NCBI GenBank assembly: GCA_004292795.1
Contig: RDXI01000018.1
Span: 1 to 51,913, forward strand
Reading direction: 5' to 3'
From: Bacteroidota bacterium
GTDB taxonomy: Bacteria > Bacteroidota > Bacteroidia > Cytophagales > Microscillaceae
Length of the DNA stretch: 51,913 bases
Position numbers and translations under genes: made by a program
Notes under the pieces: model-generated
What the model was told of the DNA's origin: nothing
What the model saw: only the letters and a program-made list of their open reading frames with translations
Databases searched by the model: none
Shown: in pieces, positions 9,345-40,433 of the stretch
How the letters are laid out: each line of letters opens with the position of its first letter
How positions within the stretch are numbered: position 1 is the stretch's first letter

Positions 9345-9382
9345 TACCCTTACAAGGGTATTTTTATACCCTTGTAAGGGTA
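9345..9382. promoter_or_regulatory. Two adjacent perfect 16-bp palindromes (TACCCTTACAAGGGTA and TACCCTTGTAAGGGTA) spaced 22 bp apart. This is a candidate operator in a divergent intergenic region.
   Basis: Perfect dyad symmetry seen directly in the sequence. The site lies between the lipoprotein gene (minus strand) and the DJ-1 gene (plus strand). Confidence 0.45.
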
Positions 9383-9545
9383 TTTTTAAAATTCAAATTT
9401 GTTGTAAAAAATTGATTATGAGGCGTTTATGATTTTTTGTTAAAAATGGCTGTTTTGACTTTTCAAAGCCTTTTGCATACCTTTGTTGCAGAAATACATA
9501 TAAAAAAACTCTAAAAATATATTTTTTTATACAAAAAACCCTATT

Positions 9546-10292
9546 ATGACAGACGATAAGAAACTCATTGTAGCCTTCCCGCTCTATCCCGGTTGCACCC
9601 TTGTAGATTTCGCAGGGGCTACTCAAATTTTTGCCGCGCCCTCCAGTGGCTTCAAACCAGTTTGGTTAGCTAAAACCTGCGAGCCTGTAGAAACCTCTGA
9701 TGGGGTTTCTGTAATGCCTAATGCTACCTTTGATGATTACATGAAAAAAAAGGAAGAGAAGGAAAAAATAGCTGTAGTATTCGTACCCGGAGGAGAATAT
9801 GAAGGAGTGGCTAAGGCTATGGCAGACGAAGCACTCCTGCAATTTCTTCACAATACAGCCTCGCCTGATACCTGGACAGGCTCAGTGTGTACGGGAGCGT
9901 TTATTTTGGCAGCTGCAGGAATTTTGCATGACTGTGAAGCTACTACTCATTGGGCGGCAATTCCTGTACTCCAAATGTTGTCTGAAAAACTAAAACTAAC
10001 AATACCAGAGGGCTATCCGCGTGGCGTGGCAAAACACAGGCATAAACCTTTTACAGGTGGAGGCATTTCATCATCTTTAGACCTTGCTTTAGAGATTGTG
10101 ATTGCACTCAAAGACAGAGAACACGCAGAAAAATCGCAACTGTTAGCTCAATATCAACCTGATCCGCCTACTTGTGCTGGAGACCCCAATCACGCGCCTG
10201 CCGAGATGGTAGAAGCCATGCGCCAAGCTGGGAAAGCATCACAAGAAATTTTAGTAAAAGCCGTCAATAAATTACTTAATTCTCATTCATAA
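9546..10292 (+). CDS. DJ-1/PfpI family protein (class I glutamine amidotransferase-like fold)
   Basis: Nucleophile-elbow context SVCTGAFILAAAG with a following His (TTHW). Length 248 aa. Confidence 0.75.
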   Translation: MTDDKKLIVAFPLYPGCTLVDFAGATQIFAAPSSGFKPVWLAKTCEPVETSDGVSVMPNATFDDYMKKKEEKEKIAVVFVPGGEYEGVAKAMADEALLQFLHNTASPDTWTGSVCTGAFILAAAGILHDCEATTHWAAIPVLQMLSEKLKLTIPEGYPRGVAKHRHKPFTGGGISSSLDLALEIVIALKDREHAEKSQLLAQYQPDPPTCAGDPNHAPAEMVEAMRQAGKASQEILVKAVNKLLNSHS

Positions 10293-11338: not shown

Positions 11339-11968
11339 ATGAAACCCTTTGAAAAGTGGAAAACTGAAGAAGTAGAAACCGTCTTTGGTATGTGGCTTGC
11401 CTACCAACAACCCTTAGATGCTGAAGAAACCAAAGTTTCGGAACGCTTGAGGACGCGTTTACAGAGCTTTGCAGATTTTTGGAACGAAGAGGACATCAAA
11501 GTTTTTTTCTTGATGCCTTTGATTGATGTTGTAAATTTTTACGACACAAGCTATCGCACTTTCATGGAAACGACCTTTCAGGCAACCCTTACAGATGCAC
11601 AAAATAATCCTTGCACCTTGCGCGGAAGGGTGGAAATGTTGGTGGCTATGGGCAAACAAGACCCCAAAACGCCTTTTTTCTTCCTGAATGAGTATAAACC
11701 ACAAATCAAAGCGCAATCAGACCCCAAAGGGCAACTTTTGAGTGCTATGGTGGCGGCACAAGCCCTGAACAACGGACATAATTTCCCTGTATATGGGCTT
11801 TATAACATTAGGCAAAACCTCTATTTTGTGATTTTGGTAGGCAAGGAATATACTGTTAGCCCACAATTCAATGCCATGAATAGGCAAGAGTTAGACCATA
11901 CTATCAATATGCTTCGGTTTGTGAAAAAAGAAATTGAGGGTTTTGTAAAAATTTTGTTGAAGAAGTAA
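11339..11968 (+). CDS. Hypothetical protein (209 aa)
   Basis: ORF only. A weak D...ExK pattern (FFFLNEYKP) hints at a nuclease-like fold, but this is not convincing. Confidence 0.4.
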   Translation: MKPFEKWKTEEVETVFGMWLAYQQPLDAEETKVSERLRTRLQSFADFWNEEDIKVFFLMPLIDVVNFYDTSYRTFMETTFQATLTDAQNNPCTLRGRVEMLVAMGKQDPKTPFFFLNEYKPQIKAQSDPKGQLLSAMVAAQALNNGHNFPVYGLYNIRQNLYFVILVGKEYTVSPQFNAMNRQELDHTINMLRFVKKEIEGFVKILLKK

Positions 11969-11992
11969 TTGATTTTCAAATAATTAAACTAT

Positions 11993-12544
11993 ATGCTTAC
12001 CACCCAAGAATTTTCTGATTTTGTATTTCAAATTGTCGACCTGCTGTATGGCGAACAAATAGAGCAAGCAAGAACATTGTTACAAGAAAAATGCTTGAAT
12101 GTAGGCTTGCCTACATCTGGAGAGGCTATTGAGAATGTTTTACTTACTGTTTCAAGTAATTTTAAAAACTTAGAAACACGTATGAGAAAAACTTATGAAA
12201 TGGAAAAATTAGAAATAGAACTTAACGAAATAGAGGCGAAAAAAGCTACAAGCATTCTCGCAAAATTGGGGGTACATGTATTGAGCAAAAGAGAAAAAAC
12301 TATTATAGCTATACTCGAGGAACATCGAGCCAATATTGCGGAACAACGTGATTTATTAGAACTGAACAAACATGAACACAAAACTACAGCGCAACTTTTT
12401 GAAGATTTGCTTAAGGTGTTTCTTATTGAAATTGACAGAAAAAATTTGGATCATTGGATTGCTGAACAATATGCACGCCAAACTTACAATCAAATCTTGC
12501 ATCTCGATAGTAAAATCCATGCAAGACCTCATAATATGTTATGA
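11993..12544 (+). CDS. Hypothetical coiled-coil protein (183 aa)
   Basis: ORF with compositional bias typical of coiled coils. Confidence 0.4.
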   Translation: MLTTQEFSDFVFQIVDLLYGEQIEQARTLLQEKCLNVGLPTSGEAIENVLLTVSSNFKNLETRMRKTYEMEKLEIELNEIEAKKATSILAKLGVHVLSKREKTIIAILEEHRANIAEQRDLLELNKHEHKTTAQLFEDLLKVFLIEIDRKNLDHWIAEQYARQTYNQILHLDSKIHARPHNML

Positions 12545-12655
12545 GGCTAATGTTCAGATAACCTTTTGTGAGTAAATAAAACTCAACTTTATTCACTACT
12601 TCTGTTCGTTATTTGAAGTAGTAAGACAACATATCCGTATCAATCAAAGCCTCTT

Positions 12656-12922
12656 TCATAGTTCAAAATCAACTTTTTTGTTGAACATCTCATGAGTGGC
12701 ACGTTTGCCTTCTTGCAAACGCAACGCAAGTTCTTCGTCCTCGATGTCGTTCCACATACCCGCAAAGGTCGAAGAAGCCTCCGCATTGGCTTTTTTCTCT
12801 TCGGGAGTCATATTTCGAAGCCTCAAAAGGCGTAGGTACTCATCTATGTCAGAGAGCTTGTCGGTAGGCAAGAGACTCAAATGATGCAAGATGGATTGAT
12901 AGATTTGTTCGGTCTGGCGCAT
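12656..12922 (-). CDS. Hypothetical small acidic protein (88 aa from the internal ATG)
   Basis: ORF only. Confidence 0.3.
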   Translation of the reverse strand: MRQTEQIYQSILHHLSLLPTDKLSDIDEYLRLLRLRNMTPEEKKANAEASSTFAGMWNDIEDEELALRLQEGKRATHEMFNKKVDFEL

Positions 12923-13156
12923 AGAACAGGGGGGAATGTAAAGACAAAGATACATTTTTTTTTTGATAACGCAAAAGCGAGCCTTTTTTGTCTATTTGTA
13001 TATTCTTTTGCCCAATATCCCACAAGATAGGTCGTCTAATAGCCCTCAATGCTTGCAAAAACAACCAAAAAACACTAATTTTGGGGCGAAATAAACAAAA
13101 AGCCTGCACAGTTTCTTGTTTAGAAGATTGTTTTTAAACTTCTTACCGTTCTATAA

Positions 13157-16064
13157 ATGCCTCTCAAGTTAGACTTCGCGGACAGGTTCGAGCAACGTCA
13201 TCATGGCACACGCGCCCAAGACATTGCTGAAATGCTCCAAACCATTGGCGTACAAAGCCTTGACGAACTGATTGAAAAGACCGTTCCTGCGTCTATTCGC
13301 CTTCCCAAACCTATCAAGGTTACAGCCCCCAAAACAGAACAAGAATTTTTGGCTGATTTCAAGAAATTGGCAGGCAAGAACCAAGTGTTCAAATCGTTTA
13401 TAGGTATGGGCTATTATGATACGCACACGCCTAACGTTATTTTGCGCAATATCCTTGAAAATCCGGGTTGGTACACCGCCTACACGCCTTACCAAGCCGA
13501 AATAGCACAAGGTCGCCTCGAAGCCCTTATCAATTTCCAAACGATGGTTATGGATTTGACAGGTATGGAAATTGCCAATGCTTCCCTGCTTGACGAAGGC
13601 ACTGCGGCGGCTGAAGCTATGACCATGCTTCACAGCTTGCGCAAAGGCACACGCAAAAGTGCAGAAACGTTTTTTGTGTCGGAACTTTGCCACCCGCAAA
13701 CCATCGATGTACTAAAAACCCGCGCTACACCGCTTGGCATCAACCTATTGATAGGCAATCACGAAACTGTCGACCTTACCTCGCCTGAAATCTACGGCTT
13801 GCTTCTGCAATATCCTGCTACCAATGGCGAAGTATTCGACTACACGAACCTTATCGCCACAGCAAAAGAACTCGGCATTTTTACCGCAGTAGCGACTGAC
13901 TTGTTGGCTCTCACTATCTTGAAAGCACCCGCTGAAATGGGCGCAGACGTGGCAGTGGGTTCTGCACAACGCTTGGGCGTGCCTATGGGCTATGGCGGAC
14001 CTCACGCGGCATTTTTTGCTACCAAAGACGAATACAAGCGACAAATTCCCGGGCGCATTATTGGGGTTTCCATAGATGCAGAAGGCAACAAAGCTTACAG
14101 GATGGCGTTGCAAACCCGCGAACAGCACATCAGACGCGAAAAAGCTACTTCGAATATCTGTACTGCCCAAGTATTGCTTTCTGTGATGGCGAGTATGTAC
14201 GGCGTATATCACGGACCTAAAGGCTTGCGTACTATTGCGGAACGTGTGTATGGCTTGACGCAACTTACCAAACAAGGGCTTGAGAAATTGGGCTTCGAAA
14301 TTGAGAACAAATATTATTTCGATACCATCACGGTTGTCTTGCCTGCTGACAAAATAGAGGCATTGCGCAAATCAGCTGAAAAAGTACAGATAAACTTCCG
14401 CTATTATGCAGAAGCAGGCAAGGTAGGAATCAGCTTTGACGAAGCCAAAACTACTGATGATGTAAACGCTATTTTCAAACTCTTCACCGCAGTAGGTAAG
14501 GAGCAAACCACGAAAGAAAAAACTGCCTTCACGACCTACACAAAAAGCCTTGCCAAAAACATCGAAATTCGCTTGCCTGATGACCTTATCCGCACAAGTG
14601 ACTACATGACGCACCCTGTTTTCAATACGCACCACACCGAACACGCGATGTTGCGCTATATGAAGCAGTTGGAAAACAAAGATTTGTCGTTGGTACATTC
14701 GATGATTGCGCTCGGTTCTTGCACGATGAAACTGAACGCAACGGCAGAAATGATACCCGTAACGTGGCGCGAATTTGGAGGCATACACCCCTTCGCTCCT
14801 CGCACACAGGCGCAAGGCTATACTGAATTGTTTACCAATTTGGAGAAATGGTTGTGCGAAATCACAGGCTTTGCGGGAACGAGCTTGCAACCCAATTCGG
14901 GAGCGCAAGGCGAATACGCGGGCTTGATGGCTATTCGTGCTTACCTACAACACAAAGGCGAGTCCGCTTATTCCTTCTTCGGCACATGGCACAAACCCTG
15001 CGAGTGCTGTCATGGCAGGTATGCAAGTAATTGTAACGAAATGTGACGAACATGGCAATATCGACTTGGCTGACCTTCGCGCCAATGCCGAAAAATACAA
15101 AGATAACCTTGCCTGCTTGATGGTTACGTATCCCTCGACTCACGGAGTTTTTGAGGAAGCTATCCAAGAAATATGCTCGATGATACACGAGTTTGGCGGA
15201 CAGGTATATATGGACGGTGCGAACATGAACGCGCAAGTGGGGCTTACCTCGCCTGCTATGATTGGCGCAGACGTTTGTCATTTGAATTTGCACAAAACAT
15301 TTTGTATTCCGCATGGAGGCGGTGGTCCTGGTATGGGTCCTATTTGCGTAGCTTCGCATCTTGTGCCTTTCCTACCTCACCACGCTGTAGTGTCTTTCTC
15401 CAATAGCAAAGAAACAGCCGTTTCTGCCGCGCCTTGGGGCAGTGCAAGCATCTTGACTATCTCGTATGCCTACATAGCCATGATGGGAGGCGAGGGCTTA
15501 ACCAACGCTACCAAAATGGCAATCCTCAATGCCAATTACATCAAAAAACGCCTCGAAGGGCATTACAACGCGCTGTATGCAGGCAAGAATGGTACTTGCG
15601 CCCACGAATTTATAGCCGATTGCCGAGATTTCAAGGCGCAAGGCGTAGAAGTGGCAGACATGGCAAAACGTTTGATGGATTACGGTTTCCACGCGCCTAC
15701 GGTTTCCTTCCCTGTGGCAGGCACACTCATGATAGAACCTACCGAGAGCGAAGACCGCGCAGAATTGGATAGATTTTGCGAGGCTTTGATTGCCATTCGT
15801 GAAGAAATACGCGAAATAGAGGCAGGCAAGGCTGAAAAAGGCAACAACGTTATCGTAAACGCGCCTCATACGGCTTTGATGGTTACCGCTTCGAATTGGG
15901 AAAAACCCTACTCACGCGAAAAGGCGGCTTATCCCCTTCCTTACCTGCGCGTAGGCAAGTATTTCCCTGCTGTTGCCAAAATAGACAACGCATACGGGGA
16001 CCGCAATCTCGTTTGTGCGTGTATTCCTGTAGAGGAGTACGCGAGTGAGGAGGCTGTGGCGTAA
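13157..16064 (+). pseudogene. gcvP: Glycine dehydrogenase (decarboxylating), the glycine cleavage system P protein. It is disrupted and split into two overlapping ORFs (13157-15046 and 14937-16064).
   Basis: Full-length colinearity with GcvP across both ORFs: GMGYYDTHTPNVILRNILENPGWYTAYTPYQ, the PLP site [18 protein letters not shown], and the C-terminal [10 protein letters not shown]. The frame changes at about 14960-14972. About nine conserved residues are missing there; E. coli has RNEGHRDIC between ES and LIPASAHG. Confidence 0.8.
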
Positions 16065-16075
16065 CGAACTTTTTT

Positions 16076-16121
16076 AGGTTGTTTGTAGTTATTGTAAAAA
16101 GGCTACAGACAACCTTTTTTA
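16076..16121 (+). terminator. Terminator downstream of gcvP
   Basis: Stem aggttgtttgtag/ctacagacaacct with one mismatch, followed by tttttt. Confidence 0.55.
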
Positions 16122-16151
16122 TCTCTTTCTAACCTAAAAACAATCAATCCT

Positions 16152-17345
16152 ATGAAAGAAACTAACCATTTATTTGAAGGCGAAGAATTTGCGCTTAATA
16201 CTCCAAAGGGGAGCAATATCATTCAAATCTCTGATGAAGATATTAATCAAAAATACAGACGAGGTGAAATACGCATTGTTACAGAACAAGCGCGTTATCC
16301 CCTTGATAGTATTGAAACTATGTTAGATACTGGTAAATACATATTAAATCCTGAATATCAACGTAGAAAACGTTGGGATAATGTGAGAAAATCTCGCTTA
16401 ATTGAGTCGTTTATTATGAATGTCCCTATTCCCCCTGTTTTTTTGTATGAGGTGGATTATTCAAAATATGAAGTAATGGATGGGCAACAACGCCTTACCA
16501 CAATTTATGATTTTTATCAAGGTAAATTTGAATTAGAAGGATTGGAACTCTGGAGCGAGCTAAATGGTAAAACTTATCAAAACCTTCCTGAACAAGTAAA
16601 AGGAGGTATAGATAGGCGTTATCTTTCTTCTATTGTGTTATTAAGAGAAACAGCCAAAAATGATATAGAAGCAGAAGAATTAAAAAAAATGGTCTTTGAA
16701 AGACTAAACAGTGGCGGGGAAAAATTAACCCCACAAGAAACAAGAAATGCTATATACAATGGGAAATTTAATCAATTGTGTTTGCGATTAGCAAAAAGTG
16801 ATGCTTTTAGAAAAATGTGGGGCTTGCCATTGGAAAGTGATAGTGAGATTAAAAAATTAAAAAGCGAACCATATAGAAAAATGGAAGATGCAGAATTAGT
16901 TTTAAGATTTTTTGCTTATCGTCATGTAAATGAATTAGTTTCTCCAATAGATAAGTTCCTTGATGCTTTTTTAGATAGAGCTAATAGCTTTTCTGATAAA
17001 CTTATGCAAGAACTTGAAGACATATTTATAAAGACTATAGATTTAATATATGCTATTTTTGGAAAAGATGCGTTTCTTTTGCCTATTAAAGTTCTAAAAT
17101 ACAAAACACCTTCAAAAACTGTATATGATCCTATGATGCAAGCATTCTCTACAAATTTACAGCATAAAGATATTTTGTTAGCTAAATGTGATGAGGTGAG
17201 GCGAAAAAGGTATGAAGACACAGATGTTCTTTTTATATCAGATAGTAAGTATTTATTTGATGGAAGGAAAAATAACAGAAATGATGTAATAGAGCGTATA
17301 GAATATTTTGATAAATTTATCAAATCATTTATCGAAACAACATGA
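16152..17345 (+). CDS. DUF262 (ParB-like nuclease/NTPase superfamily) domain protein
   Basis: PEYQRRKRW and DGQQRLTT are the signature motifs of DUF262 (PF03235). It has no DUF1524/HNH C-terminal domain. The gene is AT-rich. Confidence 0.75.
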   Translation: MKETNHLFEGEEFALNTPKGSNIIQISDEDINQKYRRGEIRIVTEQARYPLDSIETMLDTGKYILNPEYQRRKRWDNVRKSRLIESFIMNVPIPPVFLYEVDYSKYEVMDGQQRLTTIYDFYQGKFELEGLELWSELNGKTYQNLPEQVKGGIDRRYLSSIVLLRETAKNDIEAEELKKMVFERLNSGGEKLTPQETRNAIYNGKFNQLCLRLAKSDAFRKMWGLPLESDSEIKKLKSEPYRKMEDAELVLRFFAYRHVNELVSPIDKFLDAFLDRANSFSDKLMQELEDIFIKTIDLIYAIFGKDAFLLPIKVLKYKTPSKTVYDPMMQAFSTNLQHKDILLAKCDEVRRKRYEDTDVLFISDSKYLFDGRKNNRNDVIERIEYFDKFIKSFIETT

Positions 17346-18178
17346 ACCAGTTTTCCCTTGACAAATTCAAAAACGAACTTTCTCAACTGCGTGCATACCT
17401 ACAACACATTCAAAACGTGAATGAAGTGATAGGTTATGCACCTGTGGAAACAGATAGCGAAGTTATAACTATGCTGATAGAAAAGTTAAGAAAACAAGAG
17501 TTTGATAGTAATTTTAGAATAAATAGAAAAACTTTTGAGTACAAAGCAGTTATTATATCGCTGTATGGTACTCTCGAAAGAACTATAGAAAATTGGGTAA
17601 AGGAATATCTTGATGCTTTGTCGGGTATTGTTACAGATTATGCTAAACTTCCTGATAAAATAAAAGATAACCACTTTAAAAATTCTCTTGAATTGATTAC
17701 CGATAAATTAAGCAAAAAAGACATAGCTCCAAAATACCAACATTTGAGAAAAGAGGAGGTTTTGAAAATACTGAATCAATGTGTAGAACAAGGGACAGAG
17801 TATAAATTTAATGCAGATGCTTTTTTATTATCTTCTGGGAATTTAAAACATGATAAAATAGCACCAATATTAGCAAATTTGGATATAGATTTGAAACAAA
17901 CTACTTTTCTAAAAGATAAATCTGAAAATGAAAAAAAAGCTATCTATGCTCTCATAGATGAACTTGTAGAAAGGCGTAATGAAGTAGCACATGGTTCTGA
18001 TAGTGTTATTGACAACTTATTAGAAGTATCTTTAATTGAAGAACATATCATCAACTTAGAGATTTATGTCAGTGCTATATTTGACATTCTCAATCAAAGG
18101 CTTATCCGTTTTGAAGCTGAGGAGTCAGGGGCTTTTTTTTTTAGTAAACATAGCGAAGGATACGGTTTGGCAACATAA
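17342..18178 (+). CDS. HEPN-domain protein (predicted RNase)
   Basis: Its start overlaps the DUF262 stop by 4 bp (ATGA). An Rx4H motif (ERRNEVAHG) lies near the C-terminus within an all-alpha context. A T10 run at 18133-18142 joins this frame to the downstream ORF 18066-18422. Confidence 0.55.
   Translation: MNQFSLDKFKNELSQLRAYLQHIQNVNEVIGYAPVETDSEVITMLIEKLRKQEFDSNFRINRKTFEYKAVIISLYGTLERTIENWVKEYLDALSGIVTDYAKLPDKIKDNHFKNSLELITDKLSKKDIAPKYQHLRKEEVLKILNQCVEQGTEYKFNADAFLLSSGNLKHDKIAPILANLDIDLKQTTFLKDKSENEKKAIYALIDELVERRNEVAHGSDSVIDNLLEVSLIEEHIINLEIYVSAIFDILNQRLIRFEAEESGAFFFSKHSEGYGLAT
18133..18142 (+). repeat. T10 homopolymer at the junction of the HEPN ORF and an out-of-frame downstream ORF
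   Basis: gggg-ctttttttttt-agt. A one-nucleotide slip would fuse the HEPN protein to about 95 extra residues (LVNIAKDTVWQHK...KNNQK). The downstream ORF has no start codon of its own. Confidence 0.7.
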
Positions 18179-18431
18179 AATTGTAGGCATTTTTTTAGAG
18201 GATTATACAGTCAAAATAGATGATTTCGTACTTATTGAAACACCTGATAAAGAATTTTTAAAAGAAAGGATAGTAGGAATAGGAACGGGGAGCGGTAAGG
18301 ATTTAAAGAAACATACAAATCTTTCTGTTATAGATAAAACAGAAGTAGCTATTATCGTCAATGCTCATCTAAGTAACAATGCAAAGTCCCATAAATTCTA
18401 TTTGAAAAACAATCAAAAATAGAATAAAACT

Positions 18432-18818
18432 ATGCTATATTTTCAAAAATACTCCACCCAATTTTGCCAAACCTTCAGTCATTTGCAGGCAAAAAATCTG
18501 CATTTACAAGCGAGTTACGCGCTTGATACGGAATGGTTTGCTATGCAATTTCGCTTCGTAGAACAACCCACTTCAGGCGAGTTCGAAGCTATCGAGATAA
18601 ACTTTGAGGCGATGTTGGCAGAAGAAAATACTACAAAAGAGGCGTTTTTGCAAGAAATACAGTACAATAAAAAAATAATATTCTACGATATTGAAACCTT
18701 GTATATTTTTAACTCGCCTACTTTGGAGCGTTGGATACCCGAACACGCTATGCAAGATGCAAGAGATGTTTTAGGCATTATGTTTAATTCTTTAACCAAT
18801 TATCCACAAACTATATGA
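18432..18818 (+). CDS. Hypothetical protein (128 aa), the third gene of the DUF262-HEPN cassette
   Basis: ORF directly downstream on the same strand. No motifs recognised. Confidence 0.4.
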   Translation: MLYFQKYSTQFCQTFSHLQAKNLHLQASYALDTEWFAMQFRFVEQPTSGEFEAIEINFEAMLAEENTTKEAFLQEIQYNKKIIFYDIETLYIFNSPTLERWIPEHAMQDARDVLGIMFNSLTNYPQTI

Positions 18819-18862
18819 ACAATGCCACTACATCAAATCTTTTTATCCAAAAAATAAAAAAT

Positions 18863-20751: not shown

Positions 20752-20848
20752 AGGGGCAACCCTTGTGGTTGCCCTTTGTGTAAATACGCATTTTTATTTT
20801 AAACACGATTTGTGTCCGAAAAAGGGCAACCACAAGGGTTGCCCCTAC
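20752..20848. repeat. Pair of inverted REP-like hairpins (GGGGCAACCCTTGTGGTTGCCC and GGGCAACCACAAGGGTTGCCCC) separated by 40 bp
   Basis: Hairpins at 20755-20775 and 20825-20845 are reverse complements of each other. A third copy forms the terminator at 1946-1976. Confidence 0.75.
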
Positions 20849-20926
20849 ATTTTGAAATTTCTGTATATTTTTTGTGGCGTGTGTACTCACGCGCCATATT
20901 TTTCTAAAACAAAACAACCTTCGAAT

Positions 20927-22291
20927 ATGAAAATCAAACAACTGAACATAGAGAACTACAGGGGCTTCGAGCAGGCAAGCATTACCTTTCCCGACAACAA
21001 TTTGGCTGTTTTCATTGGCGCGAATGGAGCAGGCAAGACGAGTGTGTTGGATTTGGTGGCGAGTTTTTTGGAGGATTTTTTGTTGGGGATACATAACTAC
21101 TATCCTTTACAAAATAAAGAAATTAACCATAAAAAAGGTGTAACAAATGAATTTATCAATATTATAAATGAAGCAAATGCTAAATATTCTTTTGGTATCA
21201 CACATACAAACGAATTTGCCTTTGATGAAAAAGACTTAAAATATAGGGCAAAAGAATTACATAGTAAGATGTTTTTAGAAAATATAGAATTATCCAGAGA
21301 TATTACTGGAAATGGCTTATACTCAGAAAGACAAATTTTTACACCTGAAATTAAACTGAAAAGAACAAAGGAAATATTAGGAAACCCATTGTTTAGCACA
21401 CCAATTTTTGTTTATTTTCAGTTAAATGTTACTAAAGCTAAACGAGAAAGATATTACTCAATTCCGCAACTTGCTGTTTATGAGGAACTTACATCAAATA
21501 TAAATAATTTTGCTGTTTTCAAAGCTTGGTTCAAGCAAGAAGAAGATTTTGAAAATCAAGAAAAAGTAAACCAAGAAAATCTTGCCTACCGAAACCCCAA
21601 ATTAGAGATAGTTCGAAAGGTATTGGAAACTTTTTTCCAAAAAATAGAAAGTCCCGTTTTTGCCAAAATGCGCATACACAGGCAAGGAAGTAAAATATTT
21701 GATTTCAATAAAAAATTTTCAGCAGATAGTTTATTGATTGATAAAAATGGACAACCTTTCGAGATAGAACGACTTTCTTCAGGTGAAAAATCGTTGATGC
21801 TTTTGGTGGCTGACATAGCGAGGCGATTGTCTATAGCCAATCCTGCGTTCTCGCCTACTGAAGCCCTGCAAAAAGGCGAAGGCGTGGTGTTGATAGACGA
21901 AATAGAGCAACACTTGCACCCGCGTTGGCAACGTTTGGTCTTGCCTGCCCTACAAACCACATTTCCGAATGTACATTTTATTGTTACTACTCATTCGCCC
22001 CAAATAGTGAGCAGTGTTCCGCGTGAGAGCGTTTTTATTTTGGATAATTTCCAAATAAAAGACTACAAACCTTACACACAAGGACGCGACAGCAATTCTA
22101 TTTTACAAGATGTGTTCGGGGTGGAAACTTATCCACAAGCGTACAAAGAAAAATTGCACCAATTACATCAACTTATCCATGATGAAAAAGCAGACCAAGC
22201 CCAAAAGTTAATGCAAGAACTTATCAGTTATTGGGGCGAAAACGACAGGGAAATAAAACGCGCTCAATTATATTTAGAGGACATTGTATGA
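20927..22291 (+). CDS. ptuA: Septu defence system ATPase PtuA (AAA_15/AAA_21-type ABC-like ATPase)
   Basis: Walker A FIGANGAGKTS. Walker B and H-loop VVLIDEIEQHLHP ... TTHSP. The start is set at the ATG after the hairpins, and the ORF-track extension to 20765 is spurious. There is an AT-rich internal segment. Confidence 0.75.
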   Translation: MKIKQLNIENYRGFEQASITFPDNNLAVFIGANGAGKTSVLDLVASFLEDFLLGIHNYYPLQNKEINHKKGVTNEFINIINEANAKYSFGITHTNEFAFDEKDLKYRAKELHSKMFLENIELSRDITGNGLYSERQIFTPEIKLKRTKEILGNPLFSTPIFVYFQLNVTKAKRERYYSIPQLAVYEELTSNINNFAVFKAWFKQEEDFENQEKVNQENLAYRNPKLEIVRKVLETFFQKIESPVFAKMRIHRQGSKIFDFNKKFSADSLLIDKNGQPFEIERLSSGEKSLMLLVADIARRLSIANPAFSPTEALQKGEGVVLIDEIEQHLHPRWQRLVLPALQTTFPNVHFIVTTHSPQIVSSVPRESVFILDNFQIKDYKPYTQGRDSNSILQDVFGVETYPQAYKEKLHQLHQLIHDEKADQAQKLMQELISYWGENDREIKRAQLYLEDIV

Positions 22292-22968
22292 AACACATCA
22301 AAAAACAAGCTAAAGAACCTGCCACTATCACAGAAATAAAGTCTGTAAACGGTACTTTTGACGACCTCGACAAAGAACAAGTACAAAATGCTTTGCTCGA
22401 GGAGCAGGGCTATCTTTGTGCCTATTGTATGCGCAGAATTAGCCGAGAGTGGAATCCTGATGCCAACAAATGGAAAATTGAAATAGAGCATTACAAGCCA
22501 CAAGAAAAGTATCCTGAAAAAGCTTTAGACTACAGCAATATGCTGGGTGTTTGCAACGGCACAGCAGGCGAAAAACTGCATTGCGACAAAACCAAAGGAG
22601 GCAAAGCAGATGGAAAAGTAGAGCTAAAAAAACTCAATCCTTTGGACAGCAACTGCGAAACAATGCTTCAATACCTTCCTGATGGCACTATTCAAAGCGT
22701 GAATGGTGATGCAGAAGTTGAGTCCGACTTAGACAAAGTGCTAAATTTGAATGACACCAAACTAAAAGAATTTCGCGCAGATGCTATCGAGAAGGCATGG
22801 CGAGAGTTCCAAGAAAAACACAAGAAAAATAAAGGGAGTTGGACTAAAAAGATGTTTCAAGATGAGATAAATCGCCTAAAACAACCCAATAAAAAAGGCA
22901 GATACACCGAATATTGCCAATGTCTTATCTACTTCTTTGAGAAAAAGCTAAAAAGAGCGCAAGCATAA
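22288..22968 (+). CDS. ptuB: Septu defence system HNH endonuclease PtuB
   Basis: Overlaps the ptuA stop by 4 bp (ATGA). HNH motif CAYCMRRIS...IEHYKPQ...[21 protein letters not shown], as in the TIGR02646-type HNH. Length 226 aa. Confidence 0.75.
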
Positions 22969-23105
22969 GCAAAACATCACAAACGATTGCATACAAAGGC
23001 TATCAGAGAAAGGGAGGTATTTTCAACAAAAGTAAACGCTTCGTAAATTTTTCTATTATATTTGCCAAACGAATTACTTATTCACCCTATCATTCATTCA
23101 CTCTC

Positions 23106-25151
23106 ATGGTTTCCCCTCATAGCCTTCTTACCGATTTCGACATCAGCCTTTTTAATGGAGGTAAGCATTTTAGACTTTACGAAAAACTCGGCTCGCATAT
23201 CGTAGAGCATGAAGGCACAAAGGGCGTGCTGTTCGCCGTGTGGGCGCCTAATGCAAGTCAAGTAAGCGTAATTGGCAATTTCAATGGCTGGCAAGATGCC
23301 CAACATAAATTGTATCCGCGCCTCGATGGTTCGGGTATTTGGGAAGGATTCATTGCCAATATTGGGCAAGGCGAGATTTATAAGTACAAAATCCACTCAC
23401 ATAATTTCGGGCAAATTTTAGAGAAAACAGACCCGTTTGCTTTCTTTTGCGAAGTGCCACCCAACACCGCTTCGGTAGTGTGGGATTTGCAATATGCGTG
23501 GAAGGATAACCAATGGATGAAAGAACGCCCCAAAACCAACGCACTCAATCAGCCTTTTTCGGTGTATGAGTTGCACATTGGTTCGTGGAAACGCAATACA
23601 GAAGAGGGCTATCGCTCTTTGCACTATACGGAGCTTGCCGAAGAACTAACAGCGTATGTAAAAGAAATGGGCTTCACACACATAGAGTTTATGCCTGTGA
23701 TGGAACACCCTTTCTTTGGTTCGTGGGGCTATCAATCTACGGGCTATTTCGCGCCCAGTAGTCGCTACGGCACGCCTCAAGAATTTATGCAACTTGTGGA
23801 TAAGCTACACGAAAACGGCATAGGCGTTATTTTGGATTGGGTGCCTTCGCACTTTCCTACTGATGCCTTCAGCCTCTCCAACTTTGATGGCACTGCTTTG
23901 TATGAGCATGGCAATTTGGAGGAAGGTTTTCACCCCGATTGGAAAAGTTTTATTTTCAATTATGGGCGTTATGAAGTCCGCTCTTTCCTCATCAGTAGCG
24001 CGATGTTTTGGTGTGATGTTTACCATGCTGATGGCTTGCGTGTTGATGCGGTGGCTTCTATGCTGTACCGCGATTATTCGCGCAAGGAAGGCGAGTGGCG
24101 ACCTAATATCTACGGAGGACGTGAGAATTTGGAGGCAATTTCTTTCCTACGCGAGATGAACGAAGCCTTGTATGCCAACTTCGAGGGTATTCAAACCATA
24201 GCTGAAGAATCGACTGCTTTTTCGGGTGTTTCGCGCCCCGTTTACATTGGCGGTTTGGGCTTTGGTATGAAGTGGATGATGGGCTGGATGCACGACACGC
24301 TCAAATATTTCAAAGAAAATCCGCTTTTCCGCCGTTATCATCATGGCACTATTACCTTTAGTTTGGTGTATGCCTTTTCCGAAAACTTTATGTTGCCCCT
24401 TTCGCATGACGAAGTAGTGCATGGCAAGGGACCGCTTTTAGACCGTATGCCAGGAGATGAATGGCAACGCATGGCAAATTTGAGGGCAATGTATGGCTAT
24501 ATGTTCACCCACCCCGGCACGAAATTGTTGTTCATGGGAGGCGAGTTCGGACAGCCTACAGAATGGCAACACGACCATCAACTGCCTTGGCATTTGTTGC
24601 AACAAAATTCGCACAAAGGCGTAGCCGAGTATGTGAAGGCTCTGAACAAACTTTACAGAAGCGAACCCGCGCTGTATGAAAAAGCCTTTGATGCGAGTGG
24701 CTTCGAGTGGATAGAAGTAAACGATTATACGAACTCTGTCATCACATACATACGCAGAGGCAATAATCCTGAAGAAATTATCATAGTGGCGTGCAATCTT
24801 ACGCCTGTGCCTCGCGAAAATTATCGCTTCGGTGTGCCAGAAACAACGGAACTCGTGGAATTGCTGAACAGTGATGCAGGCGAGTTTTGGGGTAGCAATT
24901 ACAAAACCTTGCCTACCCTAAAGGCAGAACAAGTAGAGGCACATGGACGCGAATTTTCCGTAATGGCTACTATCCCCCCGCTTGCCACTGTAGTTTGGAA
25001 AGCCAAAGTAGTAGTAAAGACACTTCCGCAAGCAGAGGAAACAAAATCTCAAGAGGAAACGCCTAAAACATCAGGCAGAACCAAAAAAATAGAAAGAACA
25101 GCCGAGAAAAAAGACTCGCCTGCCAAAACAACCAAAAGCAAAAAGGCGTAA
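23106..25151 (+). CDS. glgB: 1,4-alpha-glucan branching enzyme (GH13) with a Lys/Thr-rich C-terminal tail
   Basis: CBM48-like N-terminus. GH13 catalytic regions [18 protein letters not shown] and [10 protein letters not shown]. Length 681 aa. Confidence 0.9.
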
Positions 25152-25166
25152 GTTGTGAAATAGAAA

Positions 25167-25200
25167 GAGGTTAGCCCAATGAGCTAACCTCTTATTTTTT
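25167..25200 (+). terminator. Terminator downstream of glgB. It overlaps the stop codon of the convergent anti-sigma gene.
   Basis: Stem gaggttagc/gctaacctc, loop ccaatga, then ttatttttt. Confidence 0.6.
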
Positions 25201-28012
25201 ATCGCATCACGCGGTCAAGGTCTTCTTTCGCAAAAACTTTGGCTTGCGGTTGCAAGTTGAGTTTGCAGACTTTCGCGGGTGGAGCGCAATCTTTCTTGAT
25301 AGTTTCGGGTTGATAGAGCGCGAGGCGGTCTTGCGGGAAAATCACGACCAACATCTCTTTTCTCGAAAGGCTTACTTCATTTTGTTTCTTCAGTTCTTGA
25401 AGCAGGTAAGCACTGCCTATTTGCCCCACACGATACACTTGCAACGATTTTTCTTGCGTACTTTTTTCGAGTTTGAGCGTATAGGTTTCGCTTGTGTTGT
25501 TTTGCACTGCTTTTGCGCAAGCATACACACCCAAGTTGCGCACTTTGAATTGTCGGAAGGCGAGTTGCCCTTGAGATTTTTGAGGCATTTGTTGCAAAGC
25601 ATTACATTCTGCCAATACCTTCTCGTAACGCTCCAAAACCGTATTTTCGGTAGTTTCCACGTCTTTTTGTGCCGTTACCACGAGTTGATTAGGCGAGTCT
25701 GAAACCGTTTGTTCGCCTTTGATGCGCACAGGCACATGAAATTCCTTGCCTTTTATTTCGTATCTACGTTGTTTTTCGTCTATCAATATTTTGTTGTTTT
25801 TTATCAACACCAATTCAAAAACATCTTTCGTTTCGCGCTCTTTCCATATTTTGGCGGTGTTGTCATCAGAGGCAGTAACCCACATAGAGCCATCTTGCGA
25901 GGCTTGTACGCTATTCACAGGGGCGGTATGTTCGCGCAAAGTGCGCACTAAATTGCCTGTGTTAGACCAAATACGCGCCACGTGGTCTGCGCCTGCGGTC
26001 ATTATCCACGTACCATTTTTAGCAAAAGCCGTTTGGCGAATTTTTTGTGTATGTCCTTCGCGCTTTTCGTTTGGATTATTGCGCATATTGCGTATCAAAA
26101 CAGTGCTGTTGGGCTTGTTTTTGTTCCAGTGCCACAGGCGAGGAGTAGCCTCTGCATACGAGAAGATATGCCCTTCGTCAGGCGTAAACATAGCTTGCCC
26201 ATCTGTAATATCAGTTAGTTCACGAAGTTTCTTGCCTGTCGTAGCCCACACAATCGCCTTGCTTGAGTTCGGATTGCGCGAAGTAGTGATAATGTAGTCG
26301 CCACTTATCGAAAAACGCGCTGTACCAAAAAAGCCCTCAATAGCACGCACTTTCGCGCCTGTTACCGCCCAAATTTCGGCAGAAGACTCGTCAGGGATTG
26401 TCAGAATGGTTTTGCTATCAGGCGAGAATTGCGCCTCGAAGTGAGGTACATAATGTTTCAAACTAAATAAAAACTCGCCTTTCGCACTCCAAAGTTTTAC
26501 CGTGTTGTCTTCGCTTGTAGTGAGTATATATTGCCCATTGGGGCTGTAAGACGCATTTTTGACAGAGGCAGTATGTCCACGTAAAGTGAACAAGCGGTCG
26601 CCTTGCCTACTCCAAACTATAGCAGTGCGGTCATTCGAAGCAGTCAAGATGTGTTGTCCATCAGGCGAATATACAGCCATATTCACACTTGCCGAGTGTC
26701 CTTGCAAGGTAGAAAGGAATTGCGCATCTTTTGTCCAAAGTCTTGCTGTATGGTCGTCAGAGGCAGTAAGAATGGTATTGCCATCAGGCGAGAAAACAGC
26801 AGAACGCACAGGTGCAGTATGTCCTATGAGGCTCAAAGAACGATAAGGCTCATTTTTTAGTTTCACTTCGTCCCATTTTTCTTGCAACACCCAATCTTGC
26901 TTGCCTGCGGGATTGTGTTCGGGGTTCTCGCCTACATATTCCCAAATGGTGTTATGATAGCGTGCCAAACCCGGGTGTTGTTCTTCGTTGAGTTTGAGCG
27001 AAAACAATTTATTGGTTTCTTGAGGCAACTCACGTGCTGAAATAGTAGCCACATTTTCGGGGCGTTCTTGCATTTGCTTCAGGTTTTGCTCCAAACTTTC
27101 CAACTCACGTTGTTTGCTTTCCAACAATGCCATAGGCGAAAGGTTGGTAGGCAAGCTTTCTGCCATGATGGGCGAAGCTCCCAAATACTGCCATTTAGCA
27201 TCTTGCGATTGCGCGTGGGCAGGAGTAGCAAGGGGCGTGTTATACATCATTTGGTTGCCCTCTTGCAAGAAATAATGCGAATAATCCTTCGAAATATCTG
27301 CCGTAAGCATATTCACTTCCAGCACTTTATTAGGCGCGAGGTGCAAAGGCTTGTCATCTTGCCAAGCACGTATTTCGAACATTCCCAACGTAGCAAGTGT
27401 ATGTTTGATGCCCAAAGAATCATATTGTGTAGGCACTCCTGAAGCCAATAAGTCGCTCAAACTACGCATTTCGCGGTATTGAACCGTGATATTGCCCCTT
27501 GCCTCCTCGCCTTGATTGTTCACAAAAACACCTGCGGGAATTTTTACATACGTTCCATTAGGCAAGTACAATGTCTTGGCTTCAGAACCTTGTATTTTCC
27601 AATCTTGATAGCCCACATCTATTTTTTTGTTCTCAAAAGGCGATTGCCATTTACGCACCAAGCTTGCTTGGGGCGTACTCAAAATCCAATACGCAGTAAG
27701 CAAAGAGAAACCCAACAACAGCACTACAGCCACCCGCATAGCACGGCGCGTCATGGTAACTATCAAAGATTTTCTTTCTGTATTTTGCAATTCGCTGATG
27801 GTAGGCACTTCGGCTAAAGGGCTGTCTGCCAATACATTAAACGCCTCCATAATGGCTTGTTGGCAATGCGGACAAGTAGCCAAATGTTCTTCTTGCTCAG
27901 TTGTTAGCAACGGTTCCATGCCTTTGGCACGAGCTTGGGCATAGCGCATCACCTCCAACTGGCTAAGATGGTTTTGGTCATCAGGTAGTATAGGATGGAT
28001 AGACGTTTGCAT
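25199..28012 (-). CDS. Anti-sigma factor (zf-HC2) with a single transmembrane helix and a large extracytoplasmic WD40 beta-propeller domain
   Basis: zf-HC2 motif HLATCPHCQQ. Transmembrane segment AMRVAVVLLLGFSLLTAYWIL. Repeated WD40 units read GHTAPVRSAVFSPDG..ILTASDDHTARLW and GHSASVNMAVYSPDG. Length 937 aa. Confidence 0.75.
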   Translation of the reverse strand: MQTSIHPILPDDQNHLSQLEVMRYAQARAKGMEPLLTTEQEEHLATCPHCQQAIMEAFNVLADSPLAEVPTISELQNTERKSLIVTMTRRAMRVAVVLLLGFSLLTAYWILSTPQASLVRKWQSPFENKKIDVGYQDWKIQGSEAKTLYLPNGTYVKIPAGVFVNNQGEEARGNITVQYREMRSLSDLLASGVPTQYDSLGIKHTLATLGMFEIRAWQDDKPLHLAPNKVLEVNMLTADISKDYSHYFLQEGNQMMYNTPLATPAHAQSQDAKWQYLGASPIMAESLPTNLSPMALLESKQRELESLEQNLKQMQERPENVATISARELPQETNKLFSLKLNEEQHPGLARYHNTIWEYVGENPEHNPAGKQDWVLQEKWDEVKLKNEPYRSLSLIGHTAPVRSAVFSPDGNTILTASDDHTARLWTKDAQFLSTLQGHSASVNMAVYSPDGQHILTASNDRTAIVWSRQGDRLFTLRGHTASVKNASYSPNGQYILTTSEDNTVKLWSAKGEFLFSLKHYVPHFEAQFSPDSKTILTIPDESSAEIWAVTGAKVRAIEGFFGTARFSISGDYIITTSRNPNSSKAIVWATTGKKLRELTDITDGQAMFTPDEGHIFSYAEATPRLWHWNKNKPNSTVLIRNMRNNPNEKREGHTQKIRQTAFAKNGTWIMTAGADHVARIWSNTGNLVRTLREHTAPVNSVQASQDGSMWVTASDDNTAKIWKERETKDVFELVLIKNNKILIDEKQRRYEIKGKEFHVPVRIKGEQTVSDSPNQLVVTAQKDVETTENTVLERYEKVLAECNALQQMPQKSQGQLAFRQFKVRNLGVYACAKAVQNNTSETYTLKLEKSTQEKSLQVYRVGQIGSAYLLQELKKQNEVSLSRKEMLVVIFPQDRLALYQPETIKKDCAPPAKVCKLNLQPQAKVFAKEDLDRVMR

Positions 28013-28021
28013 AACCGTATG

Positions 28022-29014
28022 TTATTGTACTCGCACTACTTCCAATTCAGGAGTAGCAGAAGGAGAGAATATTTTTTGCCAGAATGATTTTTTCTTTTCG
28101 AGGGTTTGTGCGTGTGCGAGTTCAGTATGCACTTTGAGTTCTTCTTGTTGATAATGGTAGTGCAAGAAATCTGTAAAAATGCGCTTGTCTTGAATTTCCC
28201 AAAAATGCACACCATCTTTGATTTGCATATAGTCCAAAATGCCTTTCCTGCCTCTGTCGCCTGATATTTGTTGATTGAGCCAACGCTGAATGGATTGCGC
28301 AGTGGCAGTTTCGCCTCTGTAACGCTCAAAATAAGGACGTACAAACTCAAACACACTCAAATCGTCAGCCTCTTGGTATTGGTCTTTGATAGAAAAATGA
28401 TATTGAATTTCTTGTATATCTACTATAGCTATATCTCCAAAACAATTTTTTAAATCTTCTGCCGTAACACGCGCTCTGGCTGTGAGTTTGAGCAGGAAGG
28501 CGAGCTTGGGAGCTATTTTGGGGAATAACATCTTGAATTGATTGAGAAACTGCCCAAAACGGAGCTGAAAGCAGGCAAGGAGTTGTCTTGCCTCCTGTGT
28601 GTGTGTTTGCGCCTTGTCTTCGAGCCACGAGGCGCGGTCTTGCGCGTCAGCATCATTTTCAAAAGGCGCAACCGCCCTTTCCCACTCCATACTACCGCGC
28701 TGTTGATTGCGTTCACGCTGAAGGAGCGTGTTCAGTTGGTTGAAAATAGTGCGCGTAAAGTAGTGTTTGAATCGATGTTCATCATCACACGCCTCTCGAA
28801 AGCTCTTGCTTGGGAAAGTCTTTGTGAGTAAGTGCAAATAAATCTCTTGGAAAAAATCTTGCTGATGTTGGTTGTAGGCAGGAAAGTTCTTCAGGTAAGC
28901 ACGAATCTTACCCTTCAAAAAATGCTCACAATGCTCCAGCACCCGCTCATACTGCTGTGCTTCTAACCAAACCGCGATTTGGTGTGCCGAGATAGACTTT
29001 AACAATTTATTCAT
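28022..29014 (-). CDS. Putative ECF-type sigma factor with a C-terminal extension, co-oriented 10 bp upstream of the anti-sigma gene
   Basis: N-terminal region weakly like sigma-70 region 2 (QDFFQEIYLHLLTK...). Its position immediately upstream of a zf-HC2 anti-sigma gene fits an ECF-type sigma factor. Confidence 0.4.
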   Translation of the reverse strand: MNKLLKSISAHQIAVWLEAQQYERVLEHCEHFLKGKIRAYLKNFPAYNQHQQDFFQEIYLHLLTKTFPSKSFREACDDEHRFKHYFTRTIFNQLNTLLQRERNQQRGSMEWERAVAPFENDADAQDRASWLEDKAQTHTQEARQLLACFQLRFGQFLNQFKMLFPKIAPKLAFLLKLTARARVTAEDLKNCFGDIAIVDIQEIQYHFSIKDQYQEADDLSVFEFVRPYFERYRGETATAQSIQRWLNQQISGDRGRKGILDYMQIKDGVHFWEIQDKRIFTDFLHYHYQQEELKVHTELAHAQTLEKKKSFWQKIFSPSATPELEVVRVQ

Positions 29015-29243
29015 AACATAACACCTTATACATGAAACACCTGTCTTTTATAATACCAAATGGACATCAAAAAGTGGGGTAAAATTAGGCTTTTTTTTTC
29101 AATTTTTCAAAGTTTTTTTTTTCAAAACCATTTTTTTAAAAAATAGATTGTAAGATTTGTTGTTAATACAATGTTATACTAATATTGCAAGTGTTAACGA
29201 TTGTGTTAGCAGAAATCCAATTTAACCAAAACATTCATTTCAA

Positions 29244-32200
29244 ATGAAACACAAGATACTTTACACGCTTTTAGCGTGGTGTGTGTCGCTTGGGCTTGCA
29301 TTTGCCCAAGGACGAGTTGTTTCAGGTACAGTGACAGACGCAAGCAACGGTGAGGGACTGCCGGGTGTTAGCGTTTACCTGAAAGGAACAACTACTGGGA
29401 TTGCCACTGACGCAGATGGTAAATTCCAACTAACAGTTCCTAATGCAAGTGGAGATATTCTTGTTATCTCTTTGCTTGGCTACAACGACCAAGAAATTAC
29501 GCTTGGCGCGGAAGCAGAAATAAAAGTAGCACTTGCTTCCAATGCAAGCCAATTAGGTGAGGTCGTAGTAACTGCACTTGGTATTGAGAAGGAGAAGAAA
29601 GGTTTGGGTATAGCTGTTACAGAGCTGAAAGCGGCTGATATCCAGAATACACGCTCTACTAACTTGGTTAATAGCCTTTCAGCGCGTGTGGCTGGTGTAC
29701 GTGTGCAAGGCTCTAATGGTATGGTGGGTTCATCTTCTGCTATATTCATTCGCGGTTTTACAACTTTTACGGGTAGCAACCAACCACTATTCGTAATAGA
29801 TGGTATTCCAATCGATAACTCTGGTGGCGGTAATGAACTTCAAACGGGTGTATCTAACTCAAATCGTGGGCTTGACATCAATCCTGATGACATCGAGAGT
29901 ATGTCTATCTTGAAAGGACCTGCCGCGGCTGTTTTGTATGGTTCAAGAGCTGCTGCTGGTGCTATCATGATAACCACCAAAAAAGGAAAAGCAGGTAAAA
30001 TGAAAGTTGATTTATCCACATCTTACCAAGTATCTAATGTGAATAGATTTCCTGATTACCAAAACAGTTATGGACAAGGATCTGGTGGACTTACTAATAC
30101 CTCGCCTACTGTTGCTGCTATCTCACCCTTTTCTTGGGGACCTGCTTTTGGTACAGTTTCCACATTCCCTAATTATTTGGCAGTGCGCCAAAACCCCAAC
30201 GACCCCACAAGTCCTTTGATACCCAATGAGACTTATCAGGCATATCCAAATAACGTGAGGGATTTGTTCAATCAGGGTAACAACTTACAAAACTCTCTTA
30301 CAATTTCGGGTGGAAATGAAAAGAACAGCTTCAATGCGTCCTATTCAAATACACGTGAGAATGGTATCATCAAAAATAACTTCTTGAATCGTAATACATT
30401 TCGCATCACAGGGACTTCACAACTTACCAATAAGTTCTCTGCAGGGTTGAGCTTGAATTACATCAATACATACTCAACTCGTACACAACAAGGCAATCAA
30501 CTTTCAAACCCATTTTTCCGTAGTTGGTTTTTACCACGCAGTGTGAATGCGGCTAATTATCCTTTGAATAACCCTAATGGTACGCCCAACTCTTGGTTTG
30601 ATGGTGCAGATAATCCTTTGTGGACTATTGAAAATAACAAATACCAAGATGAGGTAAACCGTGTATTGGGTAATATCAATTTAGCGTATGACTTCACTGA
30701 TTGGCTTACGCTTACCTACAAGTTAGGTACTGATTATACTAACTTCACAGCCAACACATATGATGCGCCAGGAGCACGCGGTGCGGCTAACCACAACGTC
30801 AATGGCGCAGGTGCTATTGGCAAGCGTGTTAATCAAACTATGTTGATAAGCTCATTCTTGAACCTCACAGCAAAGAAAAAAATTAATGATGATTTTAACC
30901 TTTATGTGTTGTTGGGACAAGAGTTGAATGAAATCCGCAATGTAAATCGCTTTGCTTTGGGTTCAGGTGTAGGTGTTACTGGTTTCGAGAATATTTCAAA
31001 TGCCACCACTTACAACGCTACCAATGCTGAAGCCTTGACACGTTTGATGGGTGTATATTTGAATGCACAGTTAACTTTCCGTAATTTCTTATTTTTAGAT
31101 GTTTCAGGTCGTAATGATAGGTCTTCTACCTTCACTAAAGGTAACAATTCTTATTTTTATCCTTCAGCTTCATTGAGTTTTGTGGTAACTGATGCGATTA
31201 GTGCTTTGAAAGACAATCCTATTCTTTCTTTTGCAAAAATTCGTACAAATCTTGCACGTGTTGGTCGTGTAGCACCTGCCTATAGCACAAATACTTATTT
31301 TTATAGCACAGGTACTACTGTTAGTGATGGTTTTGGTCCCACTATCCAATTCCCTTTCAATAATTTACCAGGCTTTACTTATGACAATACATTAGGTATT
31401 CCTGACTTACAGCCAGAGTTTACAGTTACACGCGAGATTGGTACAGAGCTTAAATTCTTGAAAAACCGAATCTCTGTTGATTTAGGGTATTTCAGCACCA
31501 AAAGTAGCAATATCATCTTGGCTGTTCCTATTGCTTCTGCATCAGGCTTTAACAGTGTAGTTAGAAATGCAGGTGTTTTGCAAACGAATGGTATAGAGCT
31601 ATTGTTATCAGGTACTCCTATCAAAAAGGAAAACTTCCAATGGGATGTTAGTTTGAACTGGACTCGTATCCGTAACAATGTAAAAGAATTAGCTCCAGGT
31701 GTTACAGTGATTGGATTGGGTGGTTTTACTACGCCTCAAACACGTTTGGAAGCTAATGCGCCTTATGGTGTGATTTATGGTTCGGCATTTGTTCGCCACA
31801 CTGATGGTCGTATGTTGATAGGCACCAATGGTTTACCAAGCCTTCAACCTACTATCCAAAAAATAGGAGACCCCAATCCTGACTGGACAGCTGGTTTGAC
31901 TAATACGCTTACCTACAAAGGGTTCTCATTTAGCTTCTTGCTTGATTTCCGCAAAGGCGGTGATATTTTCTCTCGCAATATTGGCGATTTACGCCGTACA
32001 GGTGCTGTGGTAGAAACTGGTGATAGAGAGCGTACTTATATCGTGCCTGGTGTAAAAACAAATGCGCTTGGACAAGTAGTTACTGATGCTAGTGGCAATG
32101 CTGCATCTAATGACATACAAATCACTGCAGAACAATATTGGGGTGGAATGTTTGGATTTGGTATAGGTGAGTCATATATATTTGATGGAAGTTGGGTACG

Positions 32201-32432: not shown

Positions 32433-32460
32433 TCCATTCCCCAAAAAATTGACAAGTAAT

Positions 32461-38699: not shown

Positions 38700-38875
38700 T
38701 GCATAATTGAAATGTGAATTTTACCTACTCTCTTGCACGCTTTTCGGTTTCCGCGTTCATTTGATACAAAAATATAAGGCTTTTTTGATAAAAACAAAAA
38801 ATAATACATAAAATATTTGTGTTTTATAACACAATTTCAATACATTTGCATCTTAAAACAATACATTTTACTCTT

Positions 38876-40304: not shown

Positions 40305-40306
40305 AA

Positions 40307-40330
40307 CAGGCAAGACTCGCGTCTTGCCTG
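40307..40330 (+). terminator. Perfect palindrome CAGGCAAGAC-TCGC-GTCTTGCCTG directly after the YhcG-1 stop. No T-tract on the plus strand.
   Basis: 10-bp perfect stem. It is the same stem family as 38072 and 41448. Confidence 0.45.
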
Positions 40331-40433
40331 CTTGGTATGCTCAAAAAAAAATTTTTATTTTTGTTTAATTGAGTATTTGTTATGTATATTTGCATACTTT
40401 ACTTCTTTAAAAATCTCTAACCAAGTAAAAACT

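Follow-up and report, generated by a model that had tools for sequence, protein, structure and literature searches.

The window analysed here is an entire 51,913-bp contig of a metagenome-assembled genome (MAG), and its gene for the P protein of the glycine cleavage system (aminomethyl-transferring glycine dehydrogenase), gcvP, is spread over two overlapping open reading frames (ORFs) in different frames. The two ORFs and the parts of the gene are listed below with the evidence that places them; L001, L084 and L085 are contigs from relatives, introduced further down.

13157-15046 (+), ORF1, 629 amino acids (ORF list)
14937-16064 (+), ORF2, 375 amino acids (ORF list)
13157-14965 (+), gcvP codons 1-603 in the original frame (ORF, PF02347, TIGR00461 positions 1-576, codon comparison with L001)
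14964/14965 (+), deletion junction (DNA alignments with L001, L084 and L085)
14966-15046 (+), out-of-frame tail of ORF1, 26 nonsense codons and a stop codon (ORF translation)
14967-16064 (+), gcvP codons 609-973 and stop codon, shifted by +1 against the 5' part (PF21478, TIGR00461 positions 581-939)

ORF1 and ORF2 are one gcvP gene. The first-pass annotation, made from the sequence alone, had proposed that the two together cover a full GcvP, and this is borne out by the gcvP equivalog profile, by the Pfam domains and by end-to-end protein alignment. On TIGR00461 (939 positions), ORF1 covers positions 1-576 and ORF2 positions 581-939. The GDC-P domain (PF02347) is complete in ORF1 (residues 13-443 against profile positions 1-429 of 429, E = 2.6e-188), and ORF2 consists of the remainder of the B-like half and a complete GcvP2_C domain (PF21478; residues 191-311 against profile positions 1-122 of 122). 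The HLNLHKTF motif, which we take to hold the PLP-binding lysine, is present in the ORF2 translation. When the two are joined (...KGES / LIPSS...), the protein lines up over its whole length with the solved P-protein structures from Synechocystis (4LGL) and human (GLDC, 6I33/6I34), and a small gap marks the joint; the five missing residues correspond to Q-R-N-I-C at about 612-616 of 4LGL, as counted from the alignment.

As in these single-chain (alpha2) enzymes, typified by TIGR00461 and by PF02347 plus PF21478, the whole profile is covered, but here the frame is broken at codon 603 and each ORF alone stays below the curated TIGR00461 cut-off of 859.2 bits (835.9 bits for ORF1 and 607.1 bits for ORF2; the intact relative P0001 reaches 1473 bits). 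The window has no continuous ORF of about 950-990 codons above this cut-off, only the two ORFs in different frames. The closest database protein is P0001 (973 amino acids), which is 99% identical to the joined window protein, and when the 14 bp described below are restored the two proteins are identical. Among named organisms, the closest are Cytophagales (a MAG from Microscillaceae with 74% identity, Spirosomaceae with about 70%), and a scan of contigs from representative genomes gave 69% identity as the best among the matches listed.

The cause of the break can be read from an alignment with L001, a Logan contig of run SRR12360574 that stems from a 99%-identical strain. Over window positions 11587-16064 the nucleotide identity is 99.1% and there is a single gap within gcvP: L001 has 14 bp, GCACCGCAATATTG, that the window lacks at 14964/14965. 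Contigs L084 and L085, which come from JGI metagenomes and are 92-95% identical, also hold a homologous counterpart of these bases. The deletion starts with the last base of codon 603, takes the whole of codons 604-607 (CAC CGC AAT ATT, encoding H R N I) and ends with the first base of the Ala codon 608; it removes the five residues His-Arg-Asn-Ile-Ala and moves the frame by +1. Codon 603 of the window (TCC, Ser) combines bases from both sides of the deletion, with the junction sequence GAGTC/CGCTT. The two sides meet bluntly, showing neither terminal microhomology nor any base in common, which rules out microhomology or slippage as the cause of the deletion. The intact sequence has a perfect 12-bp palindrome, CGCAATATTGCG, most of which is taken by the deletion; folding of the DNA at the gcvP site showed nothing beyond shuffled sequence (z = -0.2).

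The frame switch had been placed at about 14960-14972 in the first-pass annotation and attributed to the loss of several bases, not to a single-base indel, and both statements agree with the alignment. Its estimate of about nine residues (25-28 bp) was too large: the L001 alignment, the codon comparison and the spacing of conserved motifs all give five residues and 14 bp. The size was misjudged because the window's ...HKGES is homologous to ...SRNEG of E. coli, but had been matched to ...YHES.

The deletion lies just upstream of a conserved segment and affects residues that hardly vary within the family. All 120 full-length homologues space QGEYAG and SAHGTN by 29 residues, against 25 in the joined window protein, even with the hybrid junction codon included. 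Within the lost segment, the same homologues have the Arg without exception (120/120) and the His in 113 of the 120, and of the conserved H-R-N-[IV]-[AS] segment the window protein lacks HRNIA altogether. All 120 full-length homologues are intact at the deletion site. The comparison with close relatives that had been suggested in the first-pass annotation gave the same picture: five of five (P0001, P0002, P0121, P0124 and P0125) are intact, and alignment with each of three relatives (L001, L084 and L085) shows a clean 14-bp gap.

From the normal start, 603 native residues would be followed by 26 nonsense residues, which are the +1-frame reading of the conserved segment, and by the stop codon at 15044-15046. 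Such a truncated product would end before the HLNLHKTF motif and would be without the C-terminal domain. For the 365 codons further downstream there is no separate start at a natural subunit boundary. Judged from its sequence, the contig as written would carry a gcvP null allele, and the cell would make no active P protein; cleavage of glycine to CO2, NH3 and methylene-tetrahydrofolate would then fail, and serine would be expected to supply the C1 units via serine hydroxymethyltransferase. A domain search of this contig found neither gcvT nor gcvH on its 51,913 nt. Upstream of gcvP, no glycine riboswitch or other RNA element was found, and a promoter and terminator scan remained at background level.

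That the split gene still works is scarcely credible. It would have to be read by a programmed +1 frameshift or bypass, yielding a P protein that is five residues shorter, or else be a two-piece enzyme of the GcvPA/GcvPB kind. Natural two-subunit P proteins do exist, and like the GcvPA/GcvPB of Thermus thermophilus (1WYT; NF001696 / NF003346), the P protein of the window is contained in two consecutive ORFs. However, the natural boundary separates an A-like half (query residues 21-406 for 1WYT) from a B-like half (query residues 494-886), and the break in the window is at residue 603. ORF1 covers GcvPA 8-438 of 447 and, in addition, GcvPB 13-164, while ORF2 covers GcvPB 166-458 of 487; the break thus maps to position ~165 of the 487 in the GcvPB model, midway through the B-like half, whereas PA and PB naturally meet near residue 440-450. 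A gene boundary between the A-like and B-like halves (about residue 440-490 of the fused form) was looked for and the break was found inside the B half. Unlike GcvPA and GcvPB, the two window ORFs overlap in different frames and lack conserved residues.

A programmed frameshift, as in prfB, would fit in so far as read-through needs a +1 shift: the +1 frame is open from about 14928, and a +1 shift before 15044 would rejoin the two parts. However, the frameshift occurs in none of five close relatives (L001, L084, L085, P0002 and P0124 are all in frame at the site), so there is no conserved recoding site, and inspection of the sequence GAG TCC GCT TAT revealed no slippery or stop-codon-stimulated motif. 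The product would also be a P protein without invariant residues, with a spacing that is fixed in all homologues.

Searches with the frameshifted tail returned about 15 GcvP fragments from unrelated assemblies with a +1 shift within the same few codons, and at least seven of these (P0126, P0223, P0241, P0154, P0182, P0151 and P0333) turn into the +1 frame in or beside the GE-x-HRN codons. A frameshift hot spot was considered and set aside: the query itself selects for this position, the fragments that were inspected look like single-base indels, and in a larger set the truncation points are scattered. The recurrent +1 fragments are probably the product of query selection and of 1-nt indel errors. 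No fragment of the window's own strain was among the matches to the frameshifted-tail protein queries (116 and 450 amino acids).

The gene resembles the 'frameshifted' pseudogenes of the NCBI annotation pipeline PGAP in draft genomes and MAGs: it is a conserved housekeeping gene that is split between two frames, lies on a contig of a MAG and has no protein record. Exact look-ups of ORF1 (629 amino acids) and ORF2 (375 amino acids) found no protein record, and gcvP is the only large ORF of the window for which this is the case; every ORF neighbouring gcvP that was looked up has one. Ten window proteins are GenBank entries within the range TAE18818-TAE18847 (locus tags EAZ95_03xxx), and the accessions examined are consistent with unbroken numbering of the large ORFs that leaves no number for gcvP. 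It seems that the depositor's annotation already treats gcvP as a pseudogene. The usual PGAP frameshifted pseudogene has a 1-bp homopolymer indel, however, and not a blunt 14-bp deletion; a 1-nt deletion of the usual kind is found in L087, from another species, about 80 bp upstream of the position of the window's break.

Apart from the deletion, gcvP shows no decay. In comparison with L001 there are 18 codon differences, five of them downstream of the break, and all 18 are synonymous; neither stop codons, frameshifts, non-synonymous changes nor a second lesion were found in this comparison. By its codons, gcvP is under purifying selection across the whole divergence of the two strains, and since it carries no other damage, the deletion is either very recent or an artefact. 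Twelve of the 18 synonymous substitutions are clumped at 14773-14920, immediately upstream of the junction. A connection between this clump and the deletion was rejected, as clumps of the same density (12-13 substitutions per 150 bp, against a background of 0.5-1%) separate the window from the SRR12360574 strain at 24809-24947 and 26201-26340. This suggests that the clumps are short recombination tracts within an ordinary recombination mosaic.

Independently assembled sequence of the same strain was found in run SRR7244347, from which three Logan contigs match the window:

window 2307-5372, contig L086, 100% identity
window 11344-13050, contig L083, 100% identity apart from a 33-bp deletion in the window
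window 15420-18611, contig L082, 100% identity

Together they amount to 7,965 bp without a single substitution, and homopolymer lengths in the window match those of the contigs. None of the three covers 13051-15419, and this is where the gcvP junction falls. The contigs of the strain in SRR7244347 are 1.7-3.2 kb long, and of ten window proteins tested only two were found complete in it; coverage of the strain in this run seems to be low.

The 33-bp difference is a second blunt deletion, at 11391/11392: the sequence TCAATATAGCCAAACCTTGCCTGCCATGCAAGC is present in L083 and missing from the window. It is in frame and costs 11 codons (IQYSQTLPAMQ), together with a change from I to M at the junction, and the affected ORF (11339-11968, +) encodes 209 amino acids in the window and 220 in relatives; relative L084 has the same 11 codons. 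L083 passes straight through the site with no branch. DNA folding at this second site exceeded that of shuffled sequence only modestly (z = -1.9). The two blunt deletions are at most 3.6 kb apart, with no substitutions relative to the SRR7244347 contigs.

The rest of the contig is in good order. Of the other large ORFs, 36 out of 36 have full-length Pfam domain matches. Against contigs L001, L089 and L090 of the SRR12360574 strain (about 27 kb compared, 98.5-99.1% identity) the differences are intergenic single-base homopolymer differences, one 3-bp in-frame indel, a change in repeat copy number and a divergent nuclease gene; no other frame-breaking difference was found in these 27 kb.

Our preferred reading is that the deletion is a real, very recent loss-of-function allele in the sequenced DNA, to which we assign a probability of about 0.5. 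The deletion would have arisen after the split from the 99%-identical strain, too recently for further damage to have accumulated; the allele may be fixed, or only a fraction of the sampled population may have it. Several observations favour it: three relatives show a clean 14-bp gap, all five close relatives and all 120 full-length homologues are intact, the remainder of the contig looks sound, the second deletion keeps the frame, as natural indels within genes tend to do, and gcvP is dispensable in E. coli. Moreover, an overlap mis-join or a k-mer collapse is excluded, because the two sides of the junction have no bases in common, and reads that carry the junction would be the simplest source of the deletion. 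On the other side, the exclusively synonymous codon differences give no hint of relaxed selection, and deletions without accompanying SNPs look more like a technical than an evolutionary pattern.

The first-pass annotation had named a true pseudogene and an assembly error as the possible causes; these are the right alternatives. The lesion is an ordinary event of a known kind, about as likely technical as biological. A technical origin, somewhat short of even odds, would mean that assembly, scaffolding, polishing or consensus calling of a low-coverage MAG dropped 14 and 33 bases, or that a rare chimeric read was incorporated where coverage was thin; with the same likelihood, the organism would have an intact gcvP of 973 codons, encoding a protein identical to P0001. 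It is consistent with this that the window is a complete MAG contig, that an independent Logan assembly, otherwise 100% identical over 7,965 bp, holds the 33 bp, which are conserved in L084, that two blunt deletions occur within 3.6 kb alongside zero substitutions and that gcvP is otherwise without decay; the Logan contigs, which are short and broken at 13050 and 15420 in the gcvP region, suggest thin coverage. However, De Bruijn graph assemblers emit only k-mers found in reads, the junction has no microhomology that could have caused a false join, no other indel errors are present in about 21 kb compared (2307-5372, 11344-18611 and 21926-32678) and one of the two deletions is in frame. A zero-coverage gap was also considered: with coverage of about 7x, Lander-Waterman gaps would measure about 20 bp, in keeping with the sizes of the deletions, but the model conflicts with the Logan contig that covers the 33 bp.

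The real-allele reading has one sub-case that is kept apart here, as it changes the metabolic conclusion: the deletion may be real while most cells have an intact gcvP, the MAG consensus having taken the deletion path. We consider this unlikely. The SRR7244347 assembly, 100% identical elsewhere, has the undeleted 33-bp allele with no branch, and it follows that the 33-bp deletion allele, if real, is not the sole allele of the strain; a mixture of alleles would also agree with the way in which the Logan contigs break up across gcvP. However, assemblers normally keep the better-covered path.

It is improbable, although a more far-reaching version of the real-allele reading, that both blunt deletions are genuine and recent and arose by end-joining-type repair of double-strand breaks in a near-clonal natural population. 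A free-living Cytophagales-like lineage would then have just lost glycine cleavage. Purely as speculation, the nucleases of the defence island adjoining gcvP could be a source of such breaks.

The search for further copies of the allele covered several sources. The restored intact protein, identical to P0001, is on record only from run SRR12360574 (Logan contig L001). A degenerate DNA pattern that fits both the deleted and the intact allele had no matches among JGI metagenome contigs, no Logan, JGI or other contig of the strain spanning 14964/14965 was found, and a literature search on the run accessions found nothing. For practical purposes, glycine cleavage in this MAG should be scored neither as present nor as absent on the evidence of gcvP alone. 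More generally, a pseudogene call in a low-coverage MAG needs confirmation at the read level when the gene is undecayed and the contig has another blunt deletion. The gcvP break implies no new biology and its practical consequence is small.

The surroundings of gcvP differ between strains. Directly after the gcvP stop codon is a low-GC island (16065-18861, about 32% GC) with a gene for an NsnA-like DUF262/GmrSD_N protein (16152-17345) and a HEPN (RiboL-PSP/MAE_28990) partner gene (17342-18178). L001 has four unrelated genes (4491-8353) in place of the island adjacent to gcvP, and in L084 a GmrSD_N and HEPN pair is located upstream of gcvP instead (8029-9883). A Septu-type defence pair identified by PADLOC, PtuA (AAA_15/AAA_21, 508 amino acids) and PtuB (245 amino acids), lies between miaB and glgB (20765-22968, +), and L084 has a pair of AAA ATPase and HNH genes near gcvP. 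Two tandem YhcG/DUF1016 PDDEXK nucleases (39285-41447, +) are a PADLOC candidate (PDC-S02), and the second of these has strongly diverged from its L090 counterpart. An Eco57I-like type II methyltransferase is encoded at the contig end (50166-51803, -).

On the other side of gcvP, an ORF of 844 amino acids (4274-6808, -) has matches to two domains of the Major Vault Protein, the shoulder and the Vault_3 repeat, but none in NCBIfam; by these domain matches it is a bacterial MVP-like protein. Beside it are genes for an adenylate/guanylate cyclase and for a protein with a weak GldM-like match (6842-8116 and 8132-9295, both -). A tandem repeat with a 42-bp unit and about six copies is found between lysS and an FGE-sulfatase gene (43227-43478); each unit holds a hairpin-like inverted repeat, GCTATAGC...GCTATAGC, and the copy number differs from that of strain L090. 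The only Rfam match of the window is a DUF805b RNA motif (38722-38757, -; 44.8 bits against a gathering threshold of 35.6), which is located just upstream of an ORF of 184 amino acids (38145-38699, -).
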